A stretch of 61,045 nucleotides of DNA, filler included, from Hausera hauseri (Eukaryota), in assembly GCA_046269625.1 (NCBI GenBank). It is 11 parts of 11 records of this genome, joined end to end, with 100 filler letters (N's around TTAATTAATTAA, not from the genome) between each part and the next. Parts side by side here need not be neighbours in the genome. Positions count along the whole stretch, not along the records: positions 15,563 to 22,724 come from JBJURY010033891.1; 10 more parts are not named here. One strand, 5' to 3'. Under the pieces are notes generated by a model, which searched no databases, was not told where the DNA came from, and worked only from the letters and a program-made list of their open reading frames with translations. The translations under genes and the position numbers were made by a program. Of the stretch, positions 4,945-37,639 are shown in pieces (position 1 is the stretch's first letter; each line of letters begins with the position of its first letter).

Positions 4945-5189
4945 CTATCTAATCAATTCTCCATTATAGTTGATTTCTTCTCGGGGCTTCCTAGGCCTGC
5001 CGACTGGGCGTTTTGGTCTCGGAAGATAGGCTTACATCCCACTTAGCGGTACTAAATTCTTGTCGTATTGTTCCTTGTCTTCATCCGTCTGTAAATACTC
5101 GAAATGCATTGCTGCGTCTCGTACTCCCATGATTTGTTCTACGCATTTTTCCGTTTTAGCTTTTCGTGTGGCTTCTTTCATCTGTTCAT

Positions 5190-5415
5190 TAGCTATTGTC
5201 ACTACTATCCGACTTGTTTCGTTGGGAATAATTCCAACATCTATTAATTGTTCTAAATCATCGAGTATTATTCCTCTAAAGTAAAATCTGTAATTCAGCT
5301 CATTTGTTCCGCCATTATTTAGTAACCATTCGGTTACGTCCTTTACGTAGGAATGAGTGGTTAACTCACATTCTTTTTCTTCCATCCACTCGGATGATAT
5401 CATTAGTTTCATTAC
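5190..5415 (-). CDS. Ubiquitin-like (beta-grasp) domain at the element N-terminus
   Basis: VKDVTEWL..GG..YRFYFRGIILDD..LIDVGI..IVV resembles ubiquitin [21 protein letters not shown]; conserved in copy 2. Confidence 0.65.
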
Positions 5416-6064
5416 TTCGGGTTTAGTGTTCAAAATGTCTGCATATTTTTATCAAAATTTTCGGCACCGTGTTGTAAATTGTATTCTCACTAGATAATTT
5501 AGTCAAAGACAGAATAAGTTGTCTGAGTTTATTTTCAGTCATATTCACGTTAATTGATTCAATCAAGTTCTTCTCGGTTAACGCTGAGTCTAAGATCATC
5601 TCTACGTTGAATTTCCTGTTTTGCGGATACATTTCTATTTTCGCTAGGTATACTGGAGTTACCGGATTTCCGTCCGTTATTTCTTCTAAATAAGCATCCC
5701 ATTCTGGTTCATTCCCAATATCTGGGAGTTGTTGAGGGCCATTAGGGTCATTAGATTCATAAGTTTCAGTCCGATGCAGAATCATGGAATAACATTTCTA
5801 GCAAATTTTATTATGAAGTACCACTGTCGATTTCACCATCCTGTGACATAATATTACCGACACTATCATTCTGTGGATGTTTTGTTGTTTAGTAGACATT
5901 TAGTAAATACATTTTATTTATTTTGTTTTCTTTCTTACTTCATTTACTGTGTAACCCAAGTGATGGGTATCCTTATTACCACTGCTCTGTATATGTGTAT
6001 TGTTAGCCAGAGGTGGATTGGGTATTGATCGATTGATGCTAGAATCAATAGGAGATTTTAAAAT

Positions 6065-6164: not shown

Positions 6165-6957
6165 CCATCAAATAACGAGAAAATCGTGACGAAATCGGGT
6201 AAAACGCAGACGACCGGTTTACCGTGGCAAATGCGCGGGTGATTCGGCAAAGGCCAGAAATAGTGTTGGATCGTCATTCGTGCAAATCGTACGGCAGTCC
6301 GATGTAGCGCAATGATAGAGAAATATGGTGGCAATGTTCAGCAATCGTGGATTCGCTGACTGATGCAAATTTCGACAGGTGTTGATGACGGTCGGCAAGA
6401 GGACTGAACTTCGGCTGATGTCGGTGTCGCACAAATAAATGAAGGCGGTGATTGTTATAATGACAATGTCAATGTTTGGTGACGATAAACAATTCAGTAA
6501 TGACCAGAAATTGTCGTTGTTGCAAATTATCAAGTGATATAGTTGATTTGCACAAATGTTGAAAATACCAATAACGAAATGCATTTTAATGTCCTCGGTA
6601 CTGTCCTGTTGCGTTAAACAATGAAAAATACGTCCAGGACGCTCAATCAAACGAAATGTCGATGATTACGACTATAGTACGCAAAATTTGGAAGATTGGC
6701 AACGATTTGGTATCGATGATCAAATTGATCAGATTGTTGGTATTCGGAAATTAACTGTTCTAAATATTGAAAACGTTCAGTAGATCCCGGGGCAGCACGT
6801 CCTGTGCTCATAACACACAATCCAAAATTTGAACAAAATTAGTGAAATTTCCGAGTCGGAAAATCGGGCCCAATTATGTACTCGACGCGGTGGCAACGGA
6901 CGCCCGACCGTATCCAACCAAATGGGCGAGAGGGCACCAGCCGCTTTAGGCACCACA
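6165..6957 (-). repeat. 3' LTR of family-B gypsy element (starts TGTGGTGCC at 6957; truncated by contig end)
   Basis: Immediately follows the polypurine tract; first ~95 nt homologous to 18590-18661 and 38279-38374. Confidence 0.75.
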
Positions 6958-6968
6958 TCACTCCTCCC
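6958..6968 (-). promoter_or_regulatory. Polypurine tract (GGGAGGAGTGA)
   Basis: Purine run directly abutting the TG start of the LTR, downstream of integrase. Confidence 0.75.
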
Positions 6969-7038: not shown

Positions 7039-10000
7039 TCAGTCAGTCTTAGTGTGGACAAGACGTTGGGCGCCTTCTAGTGATTGTTCCCTCCTATACT
7101 TGCTAAATGTGACTCTGCTTGTTTTGCCTTTATGCAGTGTGTTTGCTTGCAGGGTTTGAAGTTGGGGAAAATTGTCTGATTTTGTTGTGAGTGTTGTGTC
7201 GTGAAAAGATGAATCAAAATGAAGAAAATGAGAAGGTGAAGGAGGAAGCGAGATTGTTGAAGACGGATAGTTAGAGGTATTTAAGAAAGTGTTAGAAGAC
7301 GGAGGAGTGACAGAAGGTGTAGTGGCGGATAAAGGAAGAGAGAAAAGATTTAGAGTAGAAGTTGGAATTGAATTGTGTAAAAAAGTGGAAGTGGAAGATG
7401 AAACAAAGGTAGTGTTAGAGATAGGAAGAGAAATGGGGATAGAAGTAAAGAAAAAAGGAAGTCGCGAAGCGGAAGTAAAAGGGGCAGAAGACAATGTGTG
7501 AGAAGAAATGGAGGAAGAAAGCGCCGAAGACGAGGAGGGTGTGGAAGGAGAAAAAGAGAGAGAGAGAGAAAGAAAAAACAGCGAAGAGGTACAAGGCGAA
7601 AGAGAGCGACAAGATGTAGAAGGCAAAGAAAAGTAATTGGAGTGTGGTATGCAAGAGGTTGGAATGATGAAGGGTGTAGATGGAGAAATTAATGAAGTCG
7701 AAGTGGTGCTTGATGGAAAAAGTATTGTAAAAGGAGAAAGCAGGTTGTTATCAAGGGATGAAAAAGGTGTGGAAAGGCTTGAAGGTGCAAAATTGGGTGT
7801 GTAAAAAGAGGCTGAATTGTGAGAAGAAGTTGAAGTGGAAGTTTTGAAAGAAAACGTAGGGGAAAGTGGATTAAGAAATTGAGCAGAGATGGAAGGTGAA
7901 TTGTTGGATTGCTGCGCGTCGTAAAAAGATGTTGGTGAAGAAGTGACTTCGATGGGAGACGTATCGTCGATGAAGAAGGCCGGTTTAGCATTGTTGATGT
8001 GAACTGCTACTTCCTTTGTAGTCTTTGAGAATGATGATGTTGTGAGAGTGTAAGCGAATTACTTTGTAAGGGCCAACATAGTGAAGTTGAAAACCACATA
8101 GCGTCTGATTCTTTAACCAAACAAACTTGGAAGTATATAAATCATCGGGTATGTAAGGTTTATTTGCGTGTAACATTCTGAAAATGAGTCTTTGCTGATC
8201 TCAACGAAGTGTTTCTATGCCGCTTGTATAGTTTCGTCTGTAGAAGTTTTGTCCAGCTCAGTTAGCTCGAATAATGATCTGATAAAAGTGCCAGATAATG
8301 CTTCTGCAGGTGAACAGCATGTGGAAGTAGATGGTATGTTCCGCCAGCTAAGCAGAACGTACGGAAGGAGTGTAGTCCAACTGCGATGGGACTCAACAAG
8401 GATTTTGAGAGACGTTTTCATCGTTGGGTGAAAGCGTTCGAGAAGGCCATTCGATTGAGGATGATATGGTGACGTGTGAATGTGGTTAATTCCCAACCCA
8501 TTGACAATAGCTTTAAACAGGTTGGATTCGAACTGTGGATCTTGGTCCCAAATGATGTGGCGAGGTTATCCAAACCTGCTGATCCAAGTGCGGATGAAAA
8601 CGTCTGCGACAGTTTCTGTGTTGGTGTTCTGAAGCGGGGCGGCCTCTGGCCATCGCGAGGAGCGGTTCATCATTCTGAGGATGAACTGATGACCGTTGTC
8701 TAAGGGTAAAGGGCCTAAAAGGTCAATGTGAACAGATTTAAAATGAGGCGTGCAGGGGAAATGAAATAGTGGTGGCTTAGGTGCTTAATAACTTTGTATT
8801 TTTGGCATGTCACACACTGCCTAACCCATGCCTGACGTCAGAGCGCATCGACGGCCATACGACTTGGCGTTGTAAGAGTCGAAAAGTGGCCTTGGCACCG
8901 GGGTGATGCAACGAATAGATTCTGTTGAATGCTTCTTTTTGAAGCGATTTAGAAAGGATGACCTTAGGATTATTAGGTTTGGAAGTGTCAAAGGCCACAC
9001 CGTTGATGGTTTCGCACGATTTAAAAGACTTAAGAATGTCAGAAAGTGGCTGGTTTTGTTAAAGTTTGGATTGAGGAAAGATTGGTGTAAAATTAATCAA
9101 GCTGACCGATCGGGACAAGTCAGCTACTAAATTGTCGACTCCGTTTAGGAGTTTAATTACAAAATTAAATAAGGACAAATACGATATTTGCCTCTCCTGA
9201 CGTGGAGAAGGCGATTTTTTGGTGAGAATTTGAAGCAAGGGCTTGTGGTCCGTCTGTATGATAAAAGTTCGCGCAGTTAGTAAATGTTTAAAGTGTTGTA
9301 CAGCAAGGACTATTGCTAGCAACTGTCTGTCAAAGGTGGAATATCTCTGCTCTTGTGCTGTGAATTTTTGAGAGAAGAATTCCAATGGCTCATTGGATCT
9401 ATTTTTAACTTGATATAGGACAGTACCTGCAGCTGATATGGATGCATCCGTGGTTAAGAAGAGTTCTGCATGGGAGTCTGGATATGCCGGGATTTCAACC
9501 GTTTTTAAATTGTCATTGAGGTTATCGAAAGCCTTTACTAGGTTGGCAGTCCATTGAATGGGCTGTTTCTTCTTGCCAAAGCTTAATGATGCAAATGGAG
9601 CGGTCAGAGTGGAGCAATGTGGAACGTACTTATGAATGAAGTGCAAGGTTCCAAGGAAAGAACGCATTTCTGTTGATGTACGTGACAGTTGTATATTTTT
9701 GAGCTGTATGATGCGGTCTGGCTGAGGTGAATGTTTAGAGGAGCTAATAACATGCCCTAGGAAATTGACCTTATGTTGTAAGAAGGAGCATTTGGCGAAA
9801 TTAATTTGCAAATTGTTTTGGTGCAAGCGCTGGAAGATTAAACGTAAGTGTTCAGAGTGCTGCTTCGAAGAAGATGATGCAATTATGATATCATCAATAT
9901 AGGGATAGGCAAAGTCTAAACCTGATAGAACTGTATCGATATGCCTTTGAAAGGTCTGGGAGGCGCTACGAAGTCCAAAAGGCATAAAAAGGTATTCGAA

Positions 10001-10286: not shown

Positions 10287-10433
10287 TTGTCGACCTAATA
10301 AATATCCATCTAATATTTGACTAATTGTGTTTTGTTGATGTTTTGTCGACCTAATAAATACCCGTCTAATATTTGACTACTTGTGTTTTGTTGGTGTTTT
10401 GTCGATCTAATAAATATCCATCTAATATTTGAC
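10287..10433. repeat. Tandem repeat, 56-bp unit, about 2.6 copies
   Basis: TTGTCGACCTAATAAATATCCATCTAATATTTGACT... recurs at 10287, 10343 and 10399. Confidence 0.9.
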
Positions 10434-10962
10434 TCATAAAGTGTCATTATTCGTGTGTAAAATTAATATTTATATAGAAGGAAGAAATATTAGTGATATA
10501 ACTCATAATTAGACGAATACATTGTACTGTGACATAACATGAATGTCAAACGGGACATTCGACTTTAGTAACATATTCGTTGAAAAAAGAAACGATTATT
10601 TGCTTTGCGTGGAAAATTGAAGAAGTGCGATATGGCATAACGTTTAGAAGCCCATATTGCTTAATTGTGATATTTGTTGCAGATTATTTACCAACAGAAA
10701 ATGTTGTATTTGTAGAACTTGTAAAATTCCGAGTCGCACTAAAGTACTGTTCTTTGTAAAGTAACCTCAGAATATGCATAATTTTTAAAGATACATAAAA
10801 TATGTCTTACTTTTAGCCTCCAAAGGATGTTAATAAATTTGCTCCACGCACAAGTTTGGTAAAAGGCCCTGGAGGACGAAGTGTTGGAGATGTACAACAA
10901 ATTCGACTGTCCATGGTTTAGATCTTTATATTTATTAAGATAACTTAACACATACATTTTAG

Positions 10963-13900
10963 GGCAGACCAGGTGAACCCGGGCCTCCTGGTCTTCCAGG
11001 TCCAATTGGAATTCCTGGTCCAGTTGGAGGAGTAGGCCAACCTGGTGACCAGGGACCTCCAGGATTGCCAGGCAGCCGAGGACCGATGGGTCCAGTGGGA
11101 GAAGATGGACGCCCAGGTCCATCTGGTAGAAATGGATTTAAAGGAGCAGTTGGTCGAATTGGCGGTAATGGACCGGAAGGTGAACCAGGATATAAAGGTC
11201 CCATTGGAGCTCCTGGCATTTATGTTCGATACTTACTATAATATTTGTTGAGACGTTGTTTAGGGTGATCAAGGTGATATTGGAATAAAAGGTGTTGTTG
11301 GTAACATGGGCGTGAAAGGAGATCGAGGAAAACCCGGAATTAAAGGTGCTGTTGGACTTCGCGGACTAAGAGGCGAACCTGGACTCAGAGGTTTACCCGG
11401 TTCCGTAGGAAAGCCGGTATCTATTAACGCAAAAATGTAGTAACTAAGAATTCCAGGGCATTCCAGGCACGGATGGACCTAGTGGACCACCGGGGGATGC
11501 AGGACCGCCGGGATCACCAGGTCCTCAAGGGTTTCAAGGACCAGAAGGGCCAAAAGGAGCAGTTGGTCAGCCTGGTCCTAAAGGAGACCAAGGCTTTTCG
11601 GGTTCGAGAGGTGGTAGAGGTGCTCCTGGATCTCCTGGACCTTCCGGGCGAAGAGGACCTCCTGGATTGACAGGAGAACTAGGATACAAAGGAGAACCAG
11701 GAAATAGAGGTGTTCCAGGACGAATGGGTCGAGTTGGCCTTCGGGGAATTCCGGGTACAGAAGGAGAACCAGGAATGACGGGTGTCAAAGGTCCTGAAGG
11801 AGATCCTGGCTTACAGGGATCACAAGGAATGCCTGGACAAGAAGGTTTGAAGGGACGTAGGGGAGACCGTGGTCCTCAAGGTCTTATTGGTGAAGCTGGT
11901 AAACGGGGTGTTCGAGGATCTTCAGGGACGGATGGAGTAAGAGGTTATCAGGGTAGCAGAGGTATGATGGGAATGAGAGGACCACCAGGGCCTGAAGGAC
12001 CTCCTGGAACTGTTGGAGTTATCGGCGATCCTGGATCGACTGGACCCATAGGAAATAAAGGTGCTCGAGGGGACTCAGGACCAAGTGGTTTAAGAGGAAA
12101 TCCGGGTCCTAGGGTAAGTATCATTTAATTCATTTATGTACAAGTGGAATTATTAATTAATGCGTGTACTTACTTCTTTCATGCTTATTTGCCATAAATA
12201 TGTGTGCATGGAAAATAAATTGAATAAATTCCACGAGTTGTTTCTTCTAATGTTTTATTATTTTTTACGAGCTAACCTCAAATTGTTTATTATACGTATT
12301 TTGTTGTGTTATGAATGAATTTTTAACATTTAGGGATCACGAGGAAAACGTGGACCTGATGGGCCCAGTGGCGAACAGGGGCAAAAGGGACCCAGTGGAG
12401 CAATCGGTAGTCCTGGAAATATGGGGCCTCCGGGTATAGGAGGTCCACCAGGACCTCAAGGACCTCAGGGATTACGTGGATCACCAGGTTCACCGGGAAA
12501 AAGTGGCGAAATTGGTCAAATTGGAATGCGAGGACAACGAGGTGATAGAGGTCCGAGGGGAAATCCTGGTCCTCCAGGACCATCAGGTTTACCAGGCTTA
12601 AAAGGACAAAGAGGCCAGCCAGGAAAACGAGGACCTTTGGGGCCTGAAGGCAGAGTAGGTTCGGAGGGGCCACCTGGGCCTCCGGGAAAAGAAGGAGATC
12701 CAGGGCCACCTGGGATGCCGGGTGATGTTGGACCTAAGGGGCCTATTGGAGAAAGAGGTCCACCTGGTGATATGGGAAGAGTTGGGCTTCCTGGTAGAAA
12801 AGGTCAGAAAGGCTCAACCGGACCTGTTGGATACGATGGCACTAAAGGTCTAGAGGGACAAAAAGGAAATAGAGGAGAGATGGGTGGCGCCGGTCCAATG
12901 GGAATTATGGGTAACACAGGTCCAAGAGGTCCCCGAGGTCAGAAAGGAGAAAGAGGTGATCAAGGACCAAGAGGTCAGTCTGGACCAAGAGGACAGGTGG
13001 GTCCTAGAGGAGAAGATGGCCCGGTGGGTCCTCCTGGAGAGCCTGGAATCCCGGGAGGAAAAGGAGTTCCTGGCGATTTAGGTCCGATTGGCGATAAGGG
13101 ATCCCCAGGAGATCATGGAGATCAGGGACCAATGGGTGATGCTGGAATTCCAGGACAACCAGGACCTCAAGGAGATGTTGGTCAGAAAGGAGCTAAAGGT
13201 GAGCAGGGAATGAGAGGCAGAAGAGGAGAGCCTGGTGAGCCTGGAGTAAAAGGAGTAAAAGGTCCGCTTGGGAAAAAGGGAAAAGAAGGCCATCCTGGAA
13301 GAGCTGGTGACAGAGGACAGCCTGGAGAACAGGGTGATCAAGGCCCGCCAGGACTTATGGGTGAGCCTGGTTTAGCTGGTGCACTAGGTTTGCCTGGTAG
13401 ACGTGGAAGTAAAGGACCAGATGGTTTACCTGGTAACAAGGGTGAACCAGGTGATCCAGGACCACAAGGACCCGCTGGTGCTGATGGACCGATTGGTGAA
13501 CCAGGAGCATCTGGGGAAAAGGGAGAAAGAGGCGAAAGGGGGATATTGGTAAATTGTGTTATGTAATATTAAAAATTTGATTTAAAATGTTAGGGAATTG
13601 CTGGTCCCACTGGCCCAGTTGGTCCACCAGGGCCTAGAGGACCACCAGGAAAACTTGGCCAGCAAGGCCCGATCGGTGACATGGGACCTCCGGGACCACA
13701 GGTAATTAATAATTATTTTTGATATTATTAATATTTTCAAAGGGTCCAGTGGGAAATCAAGGACCAGCTGGTAGACAAGGTATAAAAGGTCCGCCTGGAG
13801 TTGATGGACCACCAGGTAAAGATGGATTACCAGGAGAACAGGGACCTTCAGGAAAGGATGGCGATCCAGGCCCACCTGGTGAAGTCGGAAAACCAGGTGT

Positions 13901-15462
13901 AATTGGTCAGACGGGAGAAGTCGGTCCTCCAGGACCTCCTGGTCCGCCGGGTCCACCGGGTTTGCGTGGCGATACTGGCAGAATGGGAAAAGAAGGACCC
14001 GTAGGTCCTCAAGGAAAAATTGGTGAACCAGGTTTTACTGGAAAACGAGGAGATCCAGGAGATAAGGGACCTAAAGGACCAGTCGGCCCTACAGGACCAC
14101 TTGGTGATGTAGGTGAACTTGGAGATCCAGGAGATGCTGGAAATGCTGGTGTTATTGGTCCTCCAGGTGATTTAGGACCACCTGGAAACGATGGCTCTAA
14201 GGGATCTCGAGGTCCTGATGGCCCTACGGTAATCTCTTCGGGCGTTGTTTGACAATTTTAAATTCAAAGATCAACTATACTAGTTGAACATAAAACTGAA
14301 ATTATAGTTTATTGTCTAGATTCAACAAGAAATTTTATCGTTCTCTAATTTACAGTTTTTCCATACGTTTACTTATTTGAAGTTATATACAAATGAGAAC
14401 AAACGATATTTAGGGCGAAGCAGGTCCCAAAGGTGATCGAGGACCAAAGGGTGTTCAAGGTCCTGATGGTCCCATTGGTCCACCGGTAAATATCTAGAGA
14501 GTTCACAACACAGATTTTATGCATATTTAAATACAAGGGTCCTCCTGGTAATCCTGGGCCGAGAGGTGACATAGGACCTAAAGGTCCAGTTGGAGGTGTT
14601 GGACAGAAAGTTCAATCGTAATTTGTATAATTGTAATATAACTACTACAGGGGTTACCTGGAAAACCAGGGGAAATAAGCACAGACTATCAGGCTATCTT
14701 TAAAAGACAACGGAAGCCTGATGACGACGGGACAAGTCAGGTATAAGTGATATTGTGTGTATATGACACACACAATCATTTATTAGATTCAAAAAGATGA
14801 AGGTAAAAAAGAACGAAAATCATCAATAGATCCAAAGGATGAGGTAATGCCATAAATTAAAAGTGGATATTTTTAGGTATTCAGGACGAAGATATTTTCG
14901 AAGCACTATCGCGTGTTTCTACGTTATTAGATTTCCTCTACAGTCCGCCCGGTACCAAAGACTATCCTGCCAGAAGTTGCGCAGATATAAAAAGAGATTA
15001 TCAAAATAAATCCGATGGTTTGGTTTTATGTGTATAATGCTAGTTCAGTACGCAATCAGGAGAATACTTCATTGATCCTAATGGAGGAAACTGGAAGGAT
15101 TCATTGAAAGTCAGCTGCAATTTTGCCAAAATGGAAACGTGTATTGAACCGGATACATCAGATTACAAATTGTCGGCATATACCAAACAGCATTCAACAT
15201 GGTTCAGTGCGCTTGCCAATATTCCAAATCAGGTAAATCGGAATATCGTACGCGTTATCGTATTGCGTCTTTTCCACAGTTCATCTACAAAATTCCAAAG
15301 GAACAATTAATTTTCCTGCAACTTAGTAGCGAAAGCGTCAGTCAGCAGATCATTCTTTTGTGTGAAGGTCTTCCTATCGTTAGCGATTTGACTACAGATG
15401 CCGCAAATAAAGACAAGAATGCTGTGGAACTTCTTGGAGATGACAGCCAGATTATTTCAGCT
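10963..15462 (+). CDS. Fibrillar collagen alpha chain (multi-exon, Gly-X-Y helix plus C-propeptide/COLFI), truncated by contig end
   Basis: Long Gly-X-Y exons split by GT-AG introns of about 40 nt (e.g. 11224-11263, 11416-11455); COLFI motifs [15 protein letters not shown] and [19 protein letters not shown]. Confidence 0.95.
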
Positions 15463-16400: not shown

Positions 16401-16485
16401 CATATACGTGGTAAGGCCCAAAAGTCCTTAGACATGCATAGATATAAAACAGCAAGAGCAATCAAATTTTACATTTGAAACAAAG

Positions 16486-18661
16486 TGTTAATTCGTCTAG
16501 TTCCACATAAATGTGCTGCGAGTAGAAATTTTTCTTTGGTTTTAAATTCTGGCATTCAAGGAATATAAGCTTGTAGAGCACCGCCGTTTTGTGCTTTACT
16601 ACATTTCTTTTGTGAAAATTGATAATTTGCACACCGAATTTAATTTTGACCATAAGTTTTGTATCTAACGATTCGATTTGCCGTGAATCTAAGAGGTTGA
16701 GACTGGCCAAAAGTACGTCATTATATCCAAATTAAAATAATTTAACTTCAACATCAATTAACGACTGTATTTGCACGTATAAATATTCATCACCAGTTAA
16801 TTCAGGCAAATATCGATCAATAGAATATTCTTCGTAACACATTAAAAAACACTGTGGGCTGGATACGTTTTACAATGACTTAACACAACTCAAGATCTTT
16901 GACTGTATCATTTGGTCGTTTGTCCGGCAGAATAATCGTCTTCGAATCCAAAACGTCAATAAATTTTAAGTAATAATTGATTACACGATCCATTATGTGT
17001 AATGACTTTCGACGTCTTTTGGAAATATATGTCTCTTTCGTTTGTTTCTCGATTTATGTGCATTTTGAAGTTACCCGACAAAATTACTGCTTATTTAGAC
17101 TTCGTACAGTGTTTTGTAAAATGGAATTAATTGAACAAAGCTTGACAAAAATCTGATAATAGAAAAAGACATTCTTCGAAAAATATGACGTAAATAAAGT
17201 CAAATTAAAATTGCAAAACTATTTTTTATTCAAACAAAAAACTTTTTACATTTAAAATGTTACAAAAGAATGGTACATGAAAAAAGTGCCGGCAAATCCG
17301 GCAACTTTAAAACCAAGCAACCCCACTGTCTTTTTATCTGCGTTCTGTAACACTTCACCGAGAACAGTATAAATGTGTAAACATCGATAAACGGGACCGA
17401 AATCCCCCAAATCTTCAACATTCATTATACTCGTATCGTTGATTAAAAATCATGTTAATTTATAAACACGACGATATCTGAGACAGCAACGCGATAACGC
17501 AGCAATATAGAGAGCACATAATAGAAATCATAGATTTACACAATTATATACAAATAGAAAGAACGTATGCATTAGAATAAACATCTTGATAATTATCAAA
17601 TCACGAACTGGGTAAATAATCACATTTTAAATGGTTCGGCAGTCGCCTCGATTCCACCATGTGAATGGGTTTTTCGAGATCACCCTTATTTTGTCTCAGT
17701 AATTCAGTGTTAATTTCACTGATGCGAACAAGAGCTTTCAACTTCTTTGATTCACACGCCAATTCAGGATAGAGTATTGAATAGAGTCGGACAAATTTTT
17801 AATATTCCTTTTGTGCCTCTTTCTCATGATAGTCTGCCAGCTGATTGCGATAAGTGTTCGTCACATTCTGACTGACATACTTCAACATTTCCATATCATA
17901 AAGAACGGATTTCGGTTTCTCGGGTTCTGGATTTTCCTTTTTAACAGGGGAGTCAAGTTCCAATTTACTGGCTTCTAACTGGGAATTCACTAATGTGGAA
18001 ATAGATACAGTGGAATTGTTGTCCTTCATCGAACCTGGAGATAACGTGGAATTGGGTGAGTTTAATGTTTGTAGACAGAGCTACAAAAGGCATGTTTCTA
18101 TCGAATGTGATAAAATTTGCAGATAATAAGAGATTCGATTTGATTTGGAATATGAAGGAGAAATTGAAAAAATTGACGATAGACTGTTTGGATATTAATC
18201 TTGAAGAAATTCTTGTAACATTTTTACTAAATTTTTAATTTGATTACTATTAGTTAATTATTTTGAAACGGATTTCTGATCGTGCATCTGAGAATAAGAA
18301 CTACAATTTTGCTGTGTAAGTTGAGTTTGAAGTCTGTATAATCGGTAGTTATTACTCGTTTCTCCATTGTGCGTAACCGCATCCAATGGAATAAGTAAAT
18401 CGGATATTTGATAAACTGAATGACAATTCACTGATAATTTCTGATGACCGGATAAATCGTCTTTTGTTGAGAATGAAAAACGAGATTGAAGTGTTTGAAG
18501 CACAGAACAAAGCAATGTTGCTAAAAATAGCTTAAATGTTGTTAAACTATTTGAATGAGATATTCGATAATCTTCTTTATTTATCCGACACGGCAATAAC
18601 TGACGCCCGGCCGTGCCCGACCAAAATGGGCCAAAGGGCACCGGCCGCCGTGGGCACCACA
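16486..18661 (-). mobile_element. 2176-bp solo-LTR-like insert (TG...CA) of family B inside the mariner 3' end
   Basis: Begins with the conserved TGTGGTGCC motif and ends ...TAACA; flanked by CAAAG/CAAGG (4 of 5 match, TSD-like); removing it rejoins the mariner stop region to its TIR. Confidence 0.75.
17355..17430 (-). pseudogene. EXOC6: Captured exocyst Sec15/EXOC6 fragment
   Basis: Translates VEDLGDFGPVYRCLHIYTVLG, matching the EXOC6 motif DFSPVYRCLHIYSVLG. Confidence 0.7.
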
Positions 18662-20115
18662 CAAGGCAACTATATAAGTTACATTTCTCAACATAGTTTC
18701 AATTGGCCTCGACGCACTTTCGCCAGAGCTCTACCATGCATTTGAACCCCAATTGGTAGAAAATTTTCCCTTTTTCGGAGAGATATTTCGCCATGTTTTC
18801 TTTGAGTTCCTCCTTTGATTCAAACCTCTGGCCCCTCAAGTGCTTCTTCACGTCGTTGAACAGCCAGAAATCACTGGAGGCTAGATCGGGACTGTATAGT
18901 GGGTAATCCAACTGCACAAATCCAGCTTTCGCCATCGCTTCTTGCGCTTGGTGTGATGAATGGACAGGAGAGTTATCATGCAGCAAATATAAGTCCTGCT
19001 TGTACGGCTTTCGTCGTAGGTTCCTGACTTCATTAACTAAACTGATATAATAATCAGAATTGATGATGCCCTCAGTAAAATCAATCTTTAAAACTCCTTT
19101 GGAATATCAAAAGGCACTAAACATCACACATTTGCGATGCGAAGTGCCGGAACGGAGCACCTTTGGGGCTTCTCCAGTGGCAACACCCACTCCTTAAACT
19201 CCCGCTTAGAGGAGGGAATGTAGAGACTCAAAGGGGTTTCATCTTCAGTAACGATACATGTTAAAAACTTGGGGCTAATGTCGCCCATGAGACGAATATT
19301 GTTTCCACATGCCGTTTTTTGCCTCCCCGTCATTTCGGCCGTCAAAAAATGTGGCACGAATCGGCTACACTATCTTCTGATGCCCAATTGCTCCAACATG
19401 TGCTGGACAGTTGTCTTACCAACACACAGTCGTACAGAGAGTTTTGATTATGTCATTTTCCTCGCATTCACCGCAATTGCCTTTAATTTTTCAAATTTCT
19501 ATTGTCCAATTTCTAATGGTCGTCCAGTTCTCTGTCTGTCAAAAACACTTGTGCGACCAGAGGAGAATTCATTTGTCCAATTATAAATAGTCGCCGGGAA
19601 TGATGCTTCACTGCCATAAGCATCACGTAGCTGCTTAATTATTTCTTTTTTCTCCACCTTCCGCAATAGTAAAAATCGTATGACACTTCGAAATTCCACT
19701 CCTTCGTACAGGATTTTCAAAAAATCGCAAAAAGCAATAAACAGCTAGAAGTTTATTTAAACAAACCATAGATTTTTTACCTATATATAATGCTTTAATC
19801 AAATATAAATTTTGGTTGTTCTAGCTGTTTTATTTTTATGCGAGTCTAAGGACTTTTGGGCCTTACCACTTACAGTCGTAGAGCGCTGTTAAAATCAATT
19901 TTATTCTTACTAAAATGACCCAAACATGATTCAGAAATTCTTATTTGACTTCGTTTTTGATTAATTGTTACATATCGCACCCATTTTTATAGAGCTTTTT
20001 ATCCATAACTCTTCATACAGAATACGACAAGCTAGTTCTATCACATCAATTCCTTCCCGAACATTTATTTGTCTATCACCTAATAGACTTGTTAAATGAG
20101 TTGTGACTTTGTTAT

Positions 20116-20920
20116 TGTAGTGCTTAGAGTGTGGTCGCACTGGAAGGGTTAGCGTGTCGATGGGAGGGCCTTCCCCGCCATGTGAATGATACCTGTAACC
20201 ATGAACTCATGTCCTATCAATACCTAAGGATGACATGACTCAGACGATTAATCACGTATTACAGTTAAAGAACGATCTGTTCCTACAACAAAACCACCAT
20301 GTCTCATACAACAACATCTTCCACTACTGCGTACAAACGAGAACAAGTATGTCACAGAAGACGGCGACACCTCAAGAGATTCAACAAAATTCGACAATCG
20401 TGAGGTAGTTTGAGAATGGCTGGTACGGTATCAGTCAATTGTATTTTCTACATTTCTCAGAAAAATCTCACTTGTGACATGACTGATACGTTGCTTAATG
20501 AGTCCAAACGATATAGAGATATTTATTTTAGTAATTTTTCATTATACAACGAACGACAATTATCACCATTTTATTTGGAATTGTTGAATACGTTTAAAAA
20601 TTGCAATGCCGATAACACGTTGATTGTAACAGATGATATGTTTGTGAATATGCCGATTGTGCCTAATGCGTTCAAATTCAATAACGTATTACTGATGTGC
20701 AAAATTCGGCACGTTAATCCAGTTGTACGTAATCAGTAAAGCCAATATTAGGTACCGAAATCGGAGTTCAGCAGTATGATGATATGCATATTGTATATAG
20801 ACTTTGTAAAGATATTAATTGAAAATACTGAATACTAGTTTTTTTTGAATTTATTATATACCTTGAATTGAATATATATTTATTATCGTTGGACTTATCT
20901 TCTTCGACTCATTAGCCGCA
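20116..20920 (+). repeat. Putative 5' LTR (TGTAGTGCTTAGAG...CGCA)
   Basis: GC-rich start similar to TGTGGTGCCTAAAG; ends in CA three nt before a PBS-like sequence. Confidence 0.55.
20470..20660 (+). pseudogene. Glycosyltransferase family 31-like fragment
   Basis: LLNESKRYRDIY...TDDMFVN resembles the GT31 motifs E...Y.DI and DDD.FVN. Confidence 0.45.
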
Positions 20921-20923
20921 AAT

Positions 20924-20935
20924 TGGTGTCAGAAG
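20924..20935 (+). promoter_or_regulatory. tRNA-Leu-type primer binding site (TGGTGTCAGAAG); second copy at 21213-21222
   Basis: Complementary to a tRNA-Leu 3' end (...CUUCUGACACCA); 18-mer CCGCAAATTGGTGTCAGA is identical at 20916 and 21205. Confidence 0.65.
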
Positions 20936-20945
20936 ATTCCATTCA

Positions 20946-21200
20946 ATGAGTTATTTGAATAAATATGTGATATTAAATGAAGAATCGTTTAAATTATTAC
21001 TCTGGGGCGGCGATGCCATTTTTCACAATGTTGAACTCCAGTACGACATTTTGGAACATTTAATGCCTTTACCAATTGGATTTAAACTTGGTCAGGTTGA
21101 TGAATTGAAAGTCTATATTCCATGGACAAAATTGGGTTCAGAAAGTGTTGTGATCACACTAAATACGGTCGAATGTATTTTAGCACTGAAATCGGATTTT
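20946..21200 (+). pseudogene. VPS13B: Captured VPS13B N-terminal (chorein-N) fragment, intronless
   Basis: MSYLNKYV..LLLWGGDAIFHNVEL..LP..FKLGQVDELKVYIPWTKLGSESVVITLNTVECIL. Confidence 0.85.
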
Positions 21201-21281
21201 TCAACCGCAAATTGGTGTCAGAGTTATCAAATTTCACGCATTCGTTTTTAGCAGTGACATTATATTTACGTAAAATCCATC

Positions 21282-21930
21282 ATGATTTTGCCATTATATA
21301 CAAGTCAGGAAAATAACAACGGTGCTACAAAATATGACACTTTACTACGATACTCATCTTTACCATTTTTACAGTCGAATCCAATCGAATTTTACACATA
21401 TGCAGAATGTATTAAAAGTTTATTTCAGTTGTCAAATGAAACAGTCAATATTTTGAGTCATTTAATTGGTTTATTTGTATTCTTAATTTTGTTGCTCAAC
21501 GATAATTTCGTTACGCTACCAAAAGCTAATACCAATTTCATGGACAGATTTGTTGTTACACTCGGCCTTATGTCATTTATTATTTGCATGTCATCATCCA
21601 TTTGTTATCATTTATTTATATGGCACAGTGAAGCGAGTAATCGGTTTTGGTTGTCGGTCGATTTGTTTGGGATATCGTTTGGGTTGACTGAATGTTTTAC
21701 TCCCGGTATTTATTTGGCATTTCATTGTTACACGAACTGGCGAATCATTTATTTGTTATTAGTATTGTTTATAATTGGAATTGCCCTTTGGATGCAGTTG
21801 CATCCTCGATACAAGTTACACAAATTTTAGAATTCGTATACTGTTCTTTGTTCTTCTGGCAACGTTTGGAGTGATTCCCACTTGCCATTGGATTTATCTG
21901 AATGATGGATTTTACAGTGGCATTGTTTCC
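21282..21930 (+). pseudogene. PAQR3: Captured PAQR3-like (progestin/adipoQ receptor) fragment, frameshifted
   Basis: CIKSLF.LSNETVNILSHLIG, SSICYHLF..HSE, DLFGIS, PGIYLAFHC, FGVIPTCHW. Confidence 0.8.
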
Positions 21931-22824: not shown

Positions 22825-25800
22825 CATGTAAAATCTTAACAGCTATTATCACACCTTTCGGTAAATTCTTAAAGTCGTACGAAGAAAATAGATGGAAAGC
22901 GAATGTGGAACGACATGTTGGCTACCATAATAGGAAACTCAAAAGGAGACACATATTTAGTTACAGACGCAAATTGACAAATGTCAAGACACGAAGAGAT
23001 AACTTTGACGATGACGAGCCTAAGGGAGGAGACGCCGTCTCAAGGATAAATAGGCACAAAAACTACTCCGTTATAAAACCACCTTTACCAATATTACCGC
23101 CAACTGCACTTATATATGAAGGCTGTGAAAAACAATCTATGAGCTCATATCAAATAGATATTTATAGAAAACTGTTCAGCCTTGAAGATCCTTATGAATG
23201 ATCGAAATATAACGGAATATTACGTAAAGTGCGCGAAACGAAAAGAACATATGCCCCATATTGTCGTTCAGCGGTCAACGATCATGGAATAATATTTTCA
23301 CCTAGAATACCCAGGCCGAACGAAATATGAACAACATTCTCAAGAGACCATGAGGTGCAGAAATTTGGAAACCCAGAAATACAACTGCCACTTAGGAGTC
23401 AGAAAATGGAAAGCGCCAATTGCATGAATAATAAACTGTCCCTAAATGGAGAGCTAAGGCAGTTAATCGACCAACCTGTTGCAACCACCGAAGTTAGAAT
23501 TAACCGCTATAAGGTGTTAACGATTTAACATCCAAAGATAGTGCCAAATTACTATGGTACGGTTATCTAAGGTAGACCCTTCGTAAAAATTCAGTTAGAA
23601 GATTTGGAAGTTTATGCATTGATAGACACAGGATCTGATATATCAGTGATAAAAGATAACTCAATACCGCAGTTTTTAAGGAAACAACTATATCCACCTC
23701 CAACAACAGATCCAGGAAGTATTGGAGCTTTTGTACAATCATTAAAATGTAAATATCGATGGAATCCGAAAATTACATAATAGCACAATCTTTTAACCAT
23801 GAATATTCAGTAATGGAACAGCTAACGGATGATGCAGTATTAGTATGCGATTTGTTAAGACAATTACCAAATATCGCGGTAGACTTTCATGCTGGAAAAT
23901 TAATAGAACTTGGACCAATAAAAGGGGTAAAAACTAATAATGATAAAAAATTTGGAGAAGAAGGGATTCCGGTTGATGAGAATATTCCACCCAGAATAGA
24001 AATGTTGATTTACGCACAAACGTGTTCAGACGATGATTGGCCAGTATATTTTGAACCAAAAGAAACGCTAAACCCGAACATTATGCTCAATCATATACTA
24101 ACGAGAGTATCAACAGGCCGTGTACCAATCAGAATAGCTAACAACGCGCCAACCACAATTAAATGGTATGCTAATACTACCTTTGGTCATACTTATAGAG
24201 TATCACCAATAACTATAGAAGAAAAACCTTACAAATGTGCCAAATTGCCACTTCACGTTGAAACTAAGTTCACCAGAATGATATTGTCATTTTTATGAAC
24301 TCATATGCCGTTATAAACCAATTATGGCTAAAAATGAAGAATATTTGGCAAAGCTAAAGCCTTGAGATTAACAATTCCGCTTAAGAAAAAGCCGGGTTCA
24401 AACGATGAAATCGGTCTNNNNNNNNNNTCTAGAAGATTTAAAGATGCCAAAATGGTATCATCCGCCGCACTCATTAAGGCCGGAAATAACAAAAAATGTT
24501 GAATGAATGCTTAAAACTGACATAATTTGACCTAGTTATAGATCTTGTTATTCGCCAATAATCATGGTTAAAAAGAAAAGTACCACGAAACATCAATTTT
24601 ATATCGATTGTCGAGCGTTGAATGCCTTTATGATGACGGATTCTTTCCAATTACCATCGGTGAAAGAAGCCTAGGATAGGCTTTCTGGAGTAAATTGTTT
24701 ACCACACTAGAATTGCAAACTTGATATTGACAAATGGAAATAGATGAAAGCCGCTATAAAATCGAAGGATTAGTACATAGACGACGAAAGAAATATAATG
24801 TTATCCAACAAATCACTGAGTTTGTATAAAAGGACACGATACCGAAAGGCCACAAATTACGAAAACATTTACAAAGAAATGGTCATAAATATTGCGTAAC
24901 AGGATACAAAAGCCAAGAAAACGTTTGGTATTACTAACGGAAGGGTCGGAAATTAGTAGTTATTCCAAAAGGACTACGAACATAAGTACTAATGGCCGAA
25001 CACGACTGATACTTAGTTGGACGCATGTCTTGGAAAAGACAGAAAGGATACTAAATAAATATTACTGGCCAAGCATATACATTTATGTAAAAAATTGGGT
25101 AAACGCTTGTGAAGTATGTTCAACCAAACAGAGAAAAGTAAAAAATTGCATTGCCAAACTCAAACGGATAAACGTACCGGACAGACCGATGCAAGCAATG
25201 TCCATGGACATTGTAAGACCATTGTCTACAACTCATAAAAATAATAAATATATCCTAACGTGCATTAACCGACTAACTTACTTTGTCGAACTAATAGCAT
25301 TAATTTATTAGAAGACTGAAACTTTGGCAGAAACCGTGGTAAGGAAAATTATTTGCAGATATGGACCCCCTGAACAAATTTTGACAGATAGAAGAAGGAA
25401 TTTCCCAAGTGAATTATTCTACAAAATTACTACGATATTCGATTTTGAACGCTTAACTACCACAGCCTATCACCCCCAATGTAATGGAATGGTTGAACGT
25501 ATGAACGCAACGGTTATACGAATTTTGCCAACAGTAGTTGCAAAAGATCAGAAGGATTGGGATGAATTTTTAGAAAGCAACCAATTTGTTATAAATAAGA
25601 CGTCCCAGCCTGCCACTGGATTTACACCATTCTTCCTTATGTATGATAGAGATACCATATTACCAACGGATTTGGGAATGATACGGTACATAGCAAATCC
25701 AGAAGACTTAGAACAGAATTTCGTCGAAGTGTTACAGACAAGATTAAAAAAGTGTCGGAAAATGGCAAAAGAATTATGCCAAGAGTATCCTGAACAATTT

Positions 25801-27863
25801 AAAAAGCAATGTGATAAGAAAGCTAAAACACATGATCTAGAAGAAGGAAATTGGGTTTATGCACATTATTCAGTAGCCAGGAAAGTCACATTCTTGAAAC
25901 TCACTCGAACTAGAAGAGGAGCCTATGAAGTTATTAGAACCACACCGATTACAGTTTACGTTAATAAAAATGGTAAAAAAGACTATCAATACAAAGAGTT
26001 GTTGAAATAGAAATAAAGCCGGAGAAATGTTATAATTTCCGTTCGAGTAGCGAAAATCAGAGTCGAGGCAGAAAAGGAACGAAAACTTCTTCAATAATTG
26101 TTAGACCGATATCCTAATGCAAATAATTCTTGCACTAACACTAATTGCCTCATATATACCAAAAGTAAAAACTCAATGGACATTGGACTTAGTAGACGAT
26201 ATTTATGGATTCCACCAACTAACTGAGAAGCAAAGCATGTACAAAGACGGAGAGATATACAAAATTTGAAATCACTAAGAGTCTACGATATGGATGGGAA
26301 CAAAACATGAGCTTGGTTTAAAGCAAGGGAACCCGTTAGAAACGACATTAAATTCCAAATATTGTTCACATACCAAGCCGACACTACAGTGAGAACATGT
26401 GACTTTCCTTATGGAGCCCAAGAAAATGTTGCAAATTAAATTTTAGATGGACATATACATACAAACTTCAAATGTTCTACTATAATATGCATGGAACTCA
26501 AGCCTACATAATTACAGAGTTCAGGATAAATATGCCTAAACGGAATGAAACAAATCAAGCAAAGACGAACGACATAATGCGGAATACTGACCCACTGAAG
26601 CGAATCTTAGATAATAACATAATCGGAATTTTTAAAGATATCAAAAAGAAGTGTATTCAAGTAAAAACCAAAGTAGAATTACCATGCGACAGACAAATTT
26701 CCAATCAATTTAATACCCATAAAAAATTAACTCCTTTAGTGAATTACTATTATATCGGACGTAACAAACCAAACCCGTGTTATAAGCTACCACTGGTTCA
26801 TGAATATAAAATAGAATTCGATCTATATAGTACCTACCCAAATGAACCAAATGTTTATCTAAAAAGGTATTATTCGGAATCCGAGTATGGGAAATTTCCC
26901 TTCCAATAACTACGAGAAACCATCTATTATTTCCAGTACAACTGTTTCTACTGATGCTGTCACTTTGAGTGAAACGCCCGAGTGAGAAATAGAAAGTATA
27001 CCTGTTAAAATTTTGACACACCACAGAAGAATTGTTTCTCGTCGAAGAGAAATTAAACTACGATATTAAAATTGAATGTCGCACTCTGTATACTAATTGA
27101 ATTGTAGTATTAAAAAAAGGTTAGTCAGGAAGCTGAGTGTAATTCATTACGTTCACAACACGACTATGTAATTAAAGTCACCGCAGAAAGTAAGACTTAA
27201 AACCTTCACATTACAAACTCTAAGCGAAATTCGAGTGATGCAATATGAAGATACCAAAAATACGAATACCAAAGAAAATATAATCGAGCTAAATAACTTA
27301 CGATAATATCTATTTTAGTGTGTCAACCTTCGTTCTCGTAATAATAACGGCGATAATTTTCTTAGCTTCCAAAAAGTGTAATAAGCGATAATAATCATCA
27401 AGGATATAAACGGGTAAAAGGGTACCAAGACGAGCTTTATGACAGAATAACCTGACAACTACAGATCGGTTTATCTTATCATCAGACAGAGAAAATGTTC
27501 TGTTTCAAAACGATGATATGTCTTAGGATTGACCGAAGTGGCAACAAGGACGGAAGAGATAAATACAGTCAGAGAATACACTAAAAATGGTCGACGGAGT
27601 TATCGGGAGGTGGTAGTGCACAAATTTGCCAAACCAAGACAGGAAAGAAGGTATTTCAAACTGCACAATACGCAGGCAAAGAGGATGATGAAATGCTGGT
27701 CATGCCAGAAAGATGCGTATACAAGCCGGATATGCAATCTCCAACAAGCACCAAGATGTTTTGGTTGTAAGAAAGAAGGACATATTAGCAGGAATTGTCC
27801 GGAAAGAAAACCCATAATATGCTATGCGTGCGGTCAACATAGGCACATAAGACGAAATTGCAT
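22825..27863 (+). mobile_element. Family A gypsy copy 3: glycoprotein TM/tail, protease, partial RT (internal deletion near 24760), integrase, downstream ORF, CCHC knuckles
   Basis: ILTAIITPFGKFLK...ALIDTGSD in one frame; integrase YYWP..C..C, QILTD, TTAYHPQCNGMVER; collinear with copies 1 and 2. Confidence 0.9.
27529..27863 (+). CDS. Gag nucleocapsid-like region with three CCHC-type zinc knuckles (first degenerate)
   Basis: CWSCQKDAYTSRIC, CFGCKKEGHISRNC, CYACGQHRHIRRNC. Confidence 0.85.
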
Positions 27864-27973
27864 NNNNNNNNNNNNNNNNNNNNNNNNNNNNNNNNNNNNN
27901 NNNNNNNTTAATTAATTAANNNNNNNNNNNNNNNNNNNNNNNNNNNNNNNNNNNNNNNNNNNNAAAAATAGTT

Positions 27974-28325
27974 GTGAAACAATCGATCGAATTCCCTTCC
28001 CTGCCGCTACTCGTCCAATTAGGCGATCTGTGGAGTTTCCATTCACAGACGGGGCGTTATCACGTTTTGCCTGAATCGGACGTTCATTGCATTAGTCTGG
28101 ACCCACTGAATAATTTTGCAATTATTATGGTCAGTGATGATCTGTGGAATATGATCAATGATCATCACTGTGCACAGTTACTCGCCATTTACGATCATCT
28201 CGTTGACCAAGAGAAAATTATTCCGGTGAATTATGCACCGGCTAATTTATTCGTCGATTACAATCTGTATCTGTACAGGTTACGCTATCTGAAGGCCGAT
28301 AACATAACCGTTCAGGGTATTCGTC
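27974..28325 (+). pseudogene. PPM1D: Captured PP2C phosphatase PPM1D/WIP1 C-terminal catalytic fragment
   Basis: LGDLWSF..PESDV..SLDP..IIMVSDDLWNMI..LKADNIT. Confidence 0.8.
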
Positions 28326-28999
28326 TGTCACCACCATATTTATGTGCACATGTCATCAGCGATGATTTGCCGTCGGATATCATTGCCAGCAATGTTTTGT
28401 CGAGTAAACTTAGTGATTGTACACTTTACTCGGAAACATTGTCATACTGTATGGATTTCCAATCTTACGTCGGATTGTCCCAAAATGGACACAGTTCTGA
28501 TGCTGATATTTTACAACAATTTGTCAGCTGCAATGACCGGTTTCATATTTCCGTTAGTACATGGACAGGTGATCATTGGGAACAATTGCAGTTGGCATTC
28601 ACCAATCAGGGTCTGTCTTGTTTGCCGACAATTTTCAGTAGGCTAGAGAACAGAAATAATGATGACATCAATGACAAACTGTTAGCATTTCCCTGGTGTT
28701 TGAGTTGCATCAGTTGTTTGCCATCTGTGAGTATGACCGATGAACTCAAATTGTTCCTTGTCAATCAAATTTCCTTTACTGAATTCTGGACGACATTTTA
28801 TCATACAACTGTCAAATACAGTCTGTTTATTGATGCCGACACCATAGTCTGTAATGGCACCATGCGTTCTATTCTCGTCCATAAACAATCCCTTGTACAG
28901 AATTTCCTTACCGGCTTGTCATCACATCGAATTGCACCATTCCGTCGACGGCCGACATCACCTTGTATCTCGTCTGTACATACTGTATTACAATCATTG

Positions 29000-29166
29000 A
29001 GAAAGTCGGTATCGGAGATTGTTGATCTACTTTTACGTTTGAGTATTCATATCGACGAGGAATTGAGAATCATGTCTCATCAGGCCCTTATAATTATCAT
29101 ACGAGAATGCCTGAATTGGCCATTTAAGACCGTTCAAACCTTTCTTAGTTTTATCCGTAAAGAAAC
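29000..29166 (+). pseudogene. FRY: Captured furry (FRY)-like fragment
   Basis: LLLRLSIHIDEELR..SHQAL..W...F..FIRKE resembles FRY HMDEELR..W..F..FIVRE. Confidence 0.6.
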
Positions 29167-30060
29167 ACCTCAAGCGCAAGGCTTATGGCGTGGTGTTATT
29201 TATTTCATAATAATATTCTTATTTATGCCCATTTCGAAGCGTAATTTAACGTCAACCAGTTCAGTGCAAATTGATTTTATTCAATATTTAGCACTTTTGC
29301 TTTCAATATGCTGTATGACTCTTTTTGGATTTGCGGATGATGTACTTGAATTAAAATGGCTACATAAATTGCTATTGCCGACAATCGCGTCGTTGCCTTT
29401 GTTAATTGTATACATAATTTCAAATGGGATGACTTACATTGTTGTACCGATGTTCTTTAGAACGTTTCTTGACAAAATTGTCAATATTGGTTGTCTCTAT
29501 TATAAATATGTGGCGACGTTGGCCGTTTGCTGTACGAATGCCATCAATATTTACGTTGGTATAAATGGAATTCAGGCTGGCCAGAGTTTGATTATTGCGG
29601 TTTCTATTTGCTGCATCAATTTTGTTGAATTTGTTACCGGTTCGTTTTGGCAGTATCATCTTTTCTCTGTTTTATATGATCTCGTACGTTTTCTGTTGTC
29701 TCGGACTTTTGAAATACAATTGGTATCCAGCGAAGGCGTTCGTCGATGTTGCATTTTCCTATTATTCCGGCATGACTTTTACCGTCGTTGGAATTCTAAG
29801 TCATTTCAGAAAAACACTTCTTTTCTTTATTCCTCAGTTCAAATTTTGTCTATTTTATTCCACAGTTGTTGCACTTTATTTTTTGTCCACGACATCGTCT
29901 TTCGAGATATCGTGCAACTGTTGATAAAGTTACTCAATCTGCATTGAAGTTTAAATCGGCTTCATTGGGAAAAATTGGTAAACTGTGTTTTTACGTTTTG
30001 AAGTATTTGAAACTCGTACAAATTCGTGAACTCGATGATGGCCACATAGAAATTAATAAA
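29167..30060 (+). pseudogene. DPAGT1: Captured DPAGT1 (GlcNAc-1-P transferase), N-truncated, intronless, frameshifted
   Basis: [73 protein letters not shown]. Confidence 0.92.
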
Positions 30061-30967
30061 ATGGTCCAGTCACCTTGTCAAATCTACAAAACCCAAAACC
30101 GAATCATCTATGGAATTTCATGAATCTGTAATGAGACGAGGTGGAATTAAGGCACATTATTTCAAAGTCGGCCAGACTTATTCTTCTAATCACAGCGAGT
30201 ATCTGATTAGAGTTTCTGACTATGGACAAAATTTGTTCTCTTCTGGCCATTGTCGACTTTCTTCAGTAAACATCAGTTATATGCGCAATAGATTCATTAA
30301 CCATAAGGAGTCCACAGATCGATAAGATTTTCATCTTAACACTGTGCGGAAATTTTAGTAAAATAGAAAACAATACTTTAATCTTTTTCGGTGGTAGATC
30401 TTTGCCCCTCCAACCAAACAACTGTACATTTCCGTTGCGTTTTACAGAGGAAATAAAATCACACAATTGGTTCCTGATATATAAAGAAATTCTTTTTGAA
30501 GCAGGCTTCTTCGTGCAGATTTTACGATGGCGATATGGTTGTGCTTGTTATTGGATTCACAAAATATTGCAGTTGTTTATCTATAAAGGCAGAATAACGA
30601 AAGGATTCCAACAAAATATTTCGGGATCCGTTTCAGATGGAATGTCAAGCCACAATTATCGGTCAGATTCTTCAACAACAACAGCAACCTTCTTGACTTC
30701 AAATGACCACGTCGAGATACCACATTGCCCGGTTTGCTGTCTATCATCACGGTTTCCTTCTACCTTTTTGTCAATAATACCTTAATACAGACCGTACACG
30801 TCACACAACGTACCGAGACATTACAATTATAAACCCTCATCCATAATATCACCGCCTTCAGGGATTTTTATCTGACTCACAAAGGTTTGATTCTAACTGA
30901 CCTCCCACACATCATGTCCTCACAACGCCTTCTCTGTATTCACATCCACCCTATAATCCGCGGCGGT

Positions 30968-36309: not shown

Positions 36310-36313
36310 GTCC

Positions 36314-37601: not shown

Positions 37602-37626
37602 CGATGAGAAATCTAGAAGTTTTAAT

Positions 37627-37637
37627 TTCTGACACCA
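37627..37637 (-). promoter_or_regulatory. tRNA-Leu-type PBS (TGGTGTCAGAA), 25 nt upstream of the CCT6 ATG
   Basis: Minus strand reads ...ACA-AT-TGGTGTCAGAA, the same motif as at 20924. Confidence 0.65.
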
Positions 37638-37639
37638 AT

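Follow-up and report, generated by a model that had tools for sequence, protein, structure and literature searches.

What is the 2.2 kb of DNA that interrupts a decayed mariner transposon in Hausera hauseri, and how did pieces of host genes come to lie inside it? The locus belongs to a window of 61,045 nt (the whole stretch of DNA analysed, filler included; assembly GCA_046269625.1) in which short contigs stand end to end with N/stop spacers between them, and the unit under study lies in the contig at 15563-22724 (JBJURY010033891.1). The insert was searched as protein with Pfam, PDB, full HMMER/phmmer and tblastn, and as RNA with Rfam, and was compared with the assembled contigs of one public run (X1), matched at 80% likeness. 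This run may be the source of the window itself, its summed depth is not a copy number, and contigs of this kind cannot prove that a junction is absent.

Table 1 Features of the insert, its mariner host and the sibling elements (positions in the window)
Feature	Position	Strand	Evidence or remark
Mariner left end (TA and terminal inverted repeat)	16405-16478		86% identity to 19872-19799, 74 nt
Mariner right terminal inverted repeat and TA	19799-19872		Pairs with the left terminal inverted repeat
Decayed mariner transposase, several frames	18699-19744	-	DDE_3 E 5.8e-7, HTH_48 E 0.002, Transposase_1 E 0.002
Target duplication, left copy CAAAG	16481-16485	+	One change relative to the empty site
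Target duplication, right copy CAAGG	18662-18666	+	Flank of the insert and empty mariner copies
Single TG...CA block, likely a solo LTR, 2,176 bp	16486-18661	-	Ends, empty mariner copies, no internal repeat or PBS
Conserved, GC-rich start of the LTR (head, family-B motif); its first bases are the CsRn1-type 5′ integrase motif	18577-18661	-	Three copies in the window
Cargo 1, C-terminal part and stop codon of WAC (WW domain-containing adapter with coiled-coil)	17601-18581	-	phmmer E 1.8e-49 to P0038
Spacer behind the WAC stop, possibly WAC 3′ UTR	17426-17600	-	Position alone
Cargo 2, EXOC6 fragment, 24 codons (72 bp)	17354-17425	-	Protein matches with PF20651
Far part with a terminal CA, presumably R/U5 or more cargo	16486-17353	-	Diverged X1 relatives along it
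Sibling purine tract (6958-6968) and, immediately behind it, the head as 3′ LTR start	6866-6968	-	Downstream of RT-RNaseH-integrase
Sibling cargo, decayed ARMC7, two frames	6219-6808	-	Begins some 150 nt into the 3′ LTR
Sibling 5′ LTR of about 735 bp (38374-37640) and tRNA-Leu-type PBS (37637-37626)	37626-38374	-	Same head

The mariner occurs with and without the insert

The mariner runs from the TA at 16405-16406 to the TA at 19871-19872. The insert (16486-18661) has the TG...CA ends, the CAAAG (16481-16485) and CAAGG (18662-18666) flanks and the placement that a first-pass annotation had given it, with the DDE frame of the transposase (18699-19106, minus strand) on one side and the left terminal inverted repeat (16405-16478) on the other. 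The annotation had proposed a comparison with uninterrupted copies of the mariner, and X1 showed empty sites: one mariner contig jumps 2,181 bp (16479 to 18661; side 36, ambiguity 4), equal to 2,176 + 5, and three contigs depart from the window at 16483, their consensus agreeing with 18665-18694 at 27 of 30 letters. These contigs represent further copies of the mariner, which is multi-copy, and need not come from the same locus. Rejoining had been expected at 16485/18662, and the empty site does rejoin, though not literally there because one copy of the duplication is lost in it; other mariner copies lack the 2.2 kb, and neither of the two outcomes named in advance as speaking against the insertion was seen.

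The empty site contains CAAGG once, indicating that the target duplication is either 5 bp with one substitution in the left copy or 4 bp (CAAG) with an extra A. When checked against the 4-bp duplication of the CsRn1 clade, the two readings cost one mutation each. The boundaries of the unit can be given exactly because it is nested in a multi-copy mariner. Three opposite-strand joints linking 18660-18682 to 19799-19818 are probably further empty mariner copies, with the left end mapping to the right terminal inverted repeat. Continuing the mirror of the terminal inverted repeat over the empty site gave no significant match, as 112 of 1,415 30-mers did equally well.

An assembly chimera of repeats would be in keeping with a window that strings together short contigs, and with the fact that none of the X1 contigs listed spans the right junction or the entire unit. 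However, a 320-nt X1 contig crosses the left junction with one difference, and a duplication that matches the empty site would not come from misjoining; a chimera is barely credible.

The unit opens with the head of an abundant LTR family

The insert had been described as starting with the family-B motif, which holds on the minus strand; in window orientation the motif lies at the right-hand end (18577-18661). Three minus-strand copies of this head (18661-18577, 6957-6866 and 38374-38283) have 62-66 of 84-85 nt in common, with a GC content of 61-67% against 33-41% behind them. Homology between the three LTRs ends after 85-92 nt, and the bodies align no better than shuffles. All three heads match TGTGGYG, the CsRN1 5′ end motif listed in Table 3 of Benachenhou et al. 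2013 (PMC3601003), at seven of seven positions. In X1, 225 contigs continue behind 18661 into flanks unlike one another (agreement 0.37), and the bin has a summed depth of 14,623 versus 6-12 in the flanks.

The head is the start of an abundant LTR family, since one sibling copy comes right after a purine tract downstream of a Gypsy pol and another opens a 735-bp LTR (38374) that reaches a Leu PBS, with the 5′ motif complete. For the sibling at 6957, the nearest solved structure of the RT is that of Ty3; a 339-codon Ser/Thr-rich frame with no Pfam match lies between its integrase and purine tract (7042-8058, minus strand). The LTR at 38374 ends in CA and is followed, after two bases, by a PBS matching 11 of 12 letters of TGGTGTCAGAAG, the tRNA-Leu(CAA) complement according to the passages cited (PMC8905726, PMC7997516); no identity was found for the body of this LTR. 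A hairpin structure for the head was discarded (z -0.56, 0.24 and 0.05), and an RNA-gene origin is without Rfam support: Rfam gave one chance-level match in the region (E 0.27) and none at gathering score in the window.

The identified cargo consists of WAC and EXOC6 pieces

The first-pass annotation had noted coding-like pieces in the insert besides EXOC6, and the largest of them proved to be WAC (18581-17601). HMMER with the minus-strand frame 18080-17604 returned 17 matches, P0038 being the best, and tblastn of P0038 against 18581-17604 gave 159 of 330 identical residues in one frame, reaching the last residue of P0038. The WAC frame comprises 327 codons, sense to the LTR head, with no frameshift and four premature stops, and this cargo is now dead. 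Nine of the 17 matches contain a WW domain, and member names read 'WW domain-containing adapter protein with coiled-coil'; among the ten clusters looked up (10 of the 17 matches), eight have named members, all trematodes or cestodes. Two of the 17, P0039 and P0052, were set aside as repeat-driven (17 and 6 stretches), with no tblastn match under masking. A 64-residue stretch of the frame is missing in P0038 and has no more than a loose alignment with two other WACs from flatworms. The first region of the frame, used in a word-based search, matched none of 163 candidates.

The EXOC6 fragment claimed earlier is real, but the significant match covers just 72 bp (17425-17354). Individually the matches are weak (E 0.019-0.25 in 5.8 billion), yet 36 of 48 candidates match, all with PF20651; 17-19 of 24 residues are identical in the seven proteins compared, and the score of 54.4 bits stands against a maximum of 19.4 in 30 shuffles. 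Beyond the 24 codons, an extended alignment did not reach significance (35 of 200 shuffles scored equally well), and 18200-18430, tried as further EXOC6, is WAC. Pfam was run on 35 ORFs, all six frames in full and 72 short windows from the insert, and PDB on six frames; no significant cargo match emerged. Both cargos lie outside Pfam domains. Host-gene sequence was identified for 1,053 of the 2,176 bp of the unit (48%).

Host sequence might also have arrived afterwards in an ordinary short solo LTR, as a LINE-made retrocopy, by a Helitron or by DNA-level copying, and an LTR of this length is indeed atypical for the clade. Against such a late insertion, WAC begins within the final five bases of the common head, exactly where family homology stops. 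Runs of A or T in the insert never exceed 6 nt, leaving no poly(A) tail, and internal repeats measure only 10-11 nt, none of them at cargo edges. The joints listed inside the insert in X1 are small indels only; none skips the cargo or joins the head to the far end, with the proviso that contigs cannot show absence. Late arrival is accordingly considered improbable.

A single unit with relatives along its whole length

No second LTR or long internal direct repeat was found inside 16486-18661, and the insert contains no PBS-like site within two mismatches, no purine tract bar one A-rich 11-mer, and none of the internal genes of an element. Relatives are present in X1 in every 130-nt bin of the insert, with a summed depth of 36-313 (head bin excepted) versus 6-12 in the flanks. 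The first 260 nt of WAC (18296-18557) have a summed depth of 253-313, several times that of the rest of the insert, and more relatives may have the head and the WAC start than the whole unit.

Support for the far end is weak. It matches the CsRn1 3′ integrase motif MSYYAMA at five of seven positions, as do at least as well 37% of the 955 CA-ending 7-mers in the contig, and it is unlike any other LTR end in the window. The far part (16486-17353) had no significant match in Pfam, PDB or Rfam. Four X1 contigs are listed as departing near the far end: one does so at the exact end, in another flank, and three diverge about 10 nt inside; none of the four has a PBS beyond it.

The chance-level 3′ motif and the three contigs that diverge inside the end would suit a one-ended or aberrant cDNA, with a true integrase head, a chance CA in captured sequence as its far end, and no past as a regular LTR; premature first strand transfer onto a host mRNA is an example of such a route. 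The recurrence of an 18-nt LTR-end-plus-PBS linker between cargo pieces in the host contig (see below) points the same way. On the other hand, the same end recurs in one contig with a different flank, diverged X1 relatives are collinear through 16486-16800, and the clean duplication implies concerted integration of both ends, which leaves this explanation with a small share of the probability. That the unit was mobilised by an integrase, as first proposed, is borne out by its TG...CA ends, the short target duplication, the empty mariner copies and the complete CsRn1 5′ integrase motif.

Sibling elements and other cargo in the window

The sibling at 6957 has cargo of its own. The first half of its ARMC7 matches PDB entry 7dvq_K (E 6.3e-7, human ARMC7 residues 12-64), and the second half, in a second frame, has armadillo-type features (0.96). 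Because the head follows the purine tract, this ARMC7 lies in U3, unless the LTR, whose far end is off the contig, is very short. The earlier proposal that cargo can sit within the LTR-bounded unit itself is thus upheld directly by WAC and EXOC6 and independently by ARMC7 behind a purine-tract-adjacent head, the unit itself being a likely LTR.

In the element at 38374 the PBS is followed at a distance of 37 nt by CCT6 (residues 1-235, collinear), then by an alanyl-tRNA synthetase piece and a gag-protease-like region (by eye; no Pfam match). This stretch (35650-37601, minus strand) has the decayed CCT6 from its ATG, and the CCT6 start has 8 nt in common with the PBS. Since CCT6 lies 3′ of the PBS, the lineage captures internally too, and not all of the cargo in the window is inside LTRs. 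Internal capture, together with a far end unlike other LTR ends in the window, would fit a deletion derivative, in which U5/PBS and the purine tract/3′ head were deleted from an element with internally captured cargo, fusing the 5′ head, cargo and 3′ tail into a non-autonomous unit. This requires two deletions, yet no trace of a PBS or repeat is left; it leaves ARMC7, immediately behind a head adjacent to a purine tract, without explanation; and a unit without PBS and purine tract could not retrotranspose, yet relatives occur along its whole length. A deletion derivative is therefore unlikely, although it is the strongest of the alternatives.

The 11 host fragments identified in four LTR-element contigs all have the sense orientation of their element (the antisense strand was scanned in two of the four); among them, PP2C and MOR2-PAG1 are below the Pfam cut-off. 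The mariner's own contig has, at 20362-21830 on the plus strand, fragments of a beta-1,3-galactosyltransferase, a linker, the VPS13 N-terminal part, a linker and PAQR/HlyIII. The linker is an 18-nt LTR-end-plus-Leu-PBS sequence that occurs twice in this array (20916-20935 and 21205-21222), which suggests repeated capture at the PBS. One of 32 candidates, from Schmidtea, matches the galactosyltransferase fragment; like the named WAC matches, it points to a probable flatworm host. At 27964-29944 (plus strand), a 660-codon open frame comprising PP2C-like, MOR2-PAG1 (furry-like) and DPAGT1 pieces lies upstream of a Gypsy gag-pol.

Two Gypsy elements (35140-35330, minus strand, and 30860-31010, plus strand) have a common pre-gag segment ending in Gly-Gly-Met, with 21 of 49 residues identical; the segment looks ubiquitin-like by eye, which neither Pfam nor PDB confirmed. 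Three related Gypsy-type elements, all decayed, occupy 1-6064, 22825-27863 and 38491-45923 at 70-72% DNA identity. In the one that was scanned, a frame for a Monjiviricetes-type fusion glycoprotein (E 1.6e-31) separates the gag-like frame from pol. Elsewhere in the window, a fibrillar collagen gene of the ordinary kind occupies 10287-15462; it has a COLFI domain, and its introns are very short, 33-47 nt as judged by eye. The contig at 46024-51917 contains an HTH_Tnp_4 (Harbinger-type) fragment and a 70-nt tandem repeat, looks unlike the other contigs and may be another animal's, possibly a fish-like one. Frames at 54421-56570 and 58889-60360 resemble, by eye, a Polinton-type DNA polymerase region and a CRESS-type Rep, with no Pfam match at 0.05.

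Proposed origin

At a probability of roughly 0.7, the insert is a solo LTR of a CsRn1-like Ty3/Gypsy element, and the LTR itself includes WAC and EXOC6 pieces that were derived from mRNA by template switching. The cargo pieces are likely to come from messenger RNA: WAC is one 327-codon frame and there is no poly(A). A full element with two copies of the unit, the two-LTR parent, was not seen, and only the head matches the siblings in the window. Length speaks against the solo-LTR reading: at 2,176 bp the unit is far longer than the CsRn1 LTRs of the training set (mean 330 bp) and than the sibling LTR of 735 bp.

The steps can be drawn from the standard LTR replication cycle. While copying U3, the reverse transcriptase would switch to co-packaged host mRNAs and then back to the RNA of the element, at a point some 85 nt away from the purine tract. 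The return would have to fall ahead of the head because the head holds the integrase end, and a forced return before the purine tract and integrase end would leave only about 85 nt conserved. The cargo would reach both LTRs during plus-strand synthesis, the integrase would put the full element into the 3′ end of the mariner, making the target duplication, and later LTR-LTR recombination would leave one LTR.

A wider and more speculative extension, 'Pack-LTR', is put forward with more doubt than belief: the LTRs of an abundant Gypsy lineage would consist of a fixed integrase head of about 85 nt and a few terminal bases, with an exchangeable host mRNA cassette between them, such that hundreds of LTRs have different genes. 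The basis for this is identified cargo behind two of the three heads. Equally tentative is the idea that cassettes are added in rounds at the head and at the recurring LTR-end/PBS linker. If 'Pack-LTR' were true, the solo LTRs across the genome would together form a library of fragments of host transcripts. Formation of a solo LTR removes cargo that lies between two LTRs, whereas cargo inside the LTR is doubled in each cycle and survives; an abundant family of this sort would distribute pieces of host genes with far greater persistence than the route described so far. Possible consequences are host-gene sequence entering the small RNAs that silence transposons, shuffled exons and inflated gene-family counts in annotation.

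Comparison with known systems

Reading frames in retroviral U3, such as MMTV sag and HIV nef, are precedents for coding sequence in this position. A full-text word search that reached few subscription papers, with hits judged by title and abstract start, found no publication on protein-coding host fragments in animal Gypsy LTRs.

The unit resembles CsRn1/Saci2-like Ty3/Gypsy elements, as far as these are described in the sources cited, in the TGTGGYG motif, the RT-RH-IN order of a sibling, a CHCC-type Gag motif seen by eye in a related element and a probable flatworm host; it differs in LTR length (2,176 bp, or 735 bp in the sibling, versus about 330-450 bp) and in the tRNA-Leu(CAA)-type PBS of the head-bearing sibling, where the clade uses tRNA-Trp (PMC3601003, PMC2582038, PMC12471100). 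As the tRNA-Trp PBS is not found, the unit is filed as CsRn1-like only. Further differences are the duplication of 4 or 5 bp and sibling LTR bodies that are mutually unrelated and include host genes. By eye, the CHCC Gag motif is complete in the 27964-33399 element, a contig without the head, and has its last Cys changed in the head-bearing 38374 element. This reading presumes the CHCC Gag spacing that we applied.

Host-derived sequence within an LTR is also known from TRIMp3 elements (Cassandra, Helenus, Ajax), where, in the account cited, it is 5S rRNA or tRNA promoter sequence in short paired LTRs, whereas here it is protein-coding mRNA with no Rfam match (PMC10886601). The unit lacks the TRIM/LARD layout of two LTRs with a PBS and purine tract between them. 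Ogre, Burro, LARDs and bdelloid ORF3 elements offer multi-kb LTRs (Ogre 1.9-6.5 kb) and acquired host-like domains, planarians included, but the extra ORFs described in these sources lie between the LTRs or in the polyprotein rather than inside the LTR (PMC6431247, PMC5408684). Captured DNA likewise sits between the LTRs in the account of the review (PMC6431247).

The closest parallel is with the animal template-switch retrocopies of Tan et al. 2016 (PMC5131818), which, as presented in the main text, are also partial mRNA pieces and multi-gene chimeras without poly(A) or a duplication of their own, amplified as non-autonomous units with preferred switch-back sites. All the Drosophila cases given there replace internal ORFs, and the retrocopy stands between a 5′ and a 3′ LTR, whereas here it lies in a single TG...CA unit, directly behind the LTR start, with neither a second LTR nor a PBS, and the cargo of the sibling lies directly behind the purine tract; this is a comparison with the main text, and the supplements could hold LTR-internal cases (PMC5131818). 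The unit is likely a variant of known LTR-mediated retroposition, with its cargo in the end-repeat and not between the repeats as usually described.
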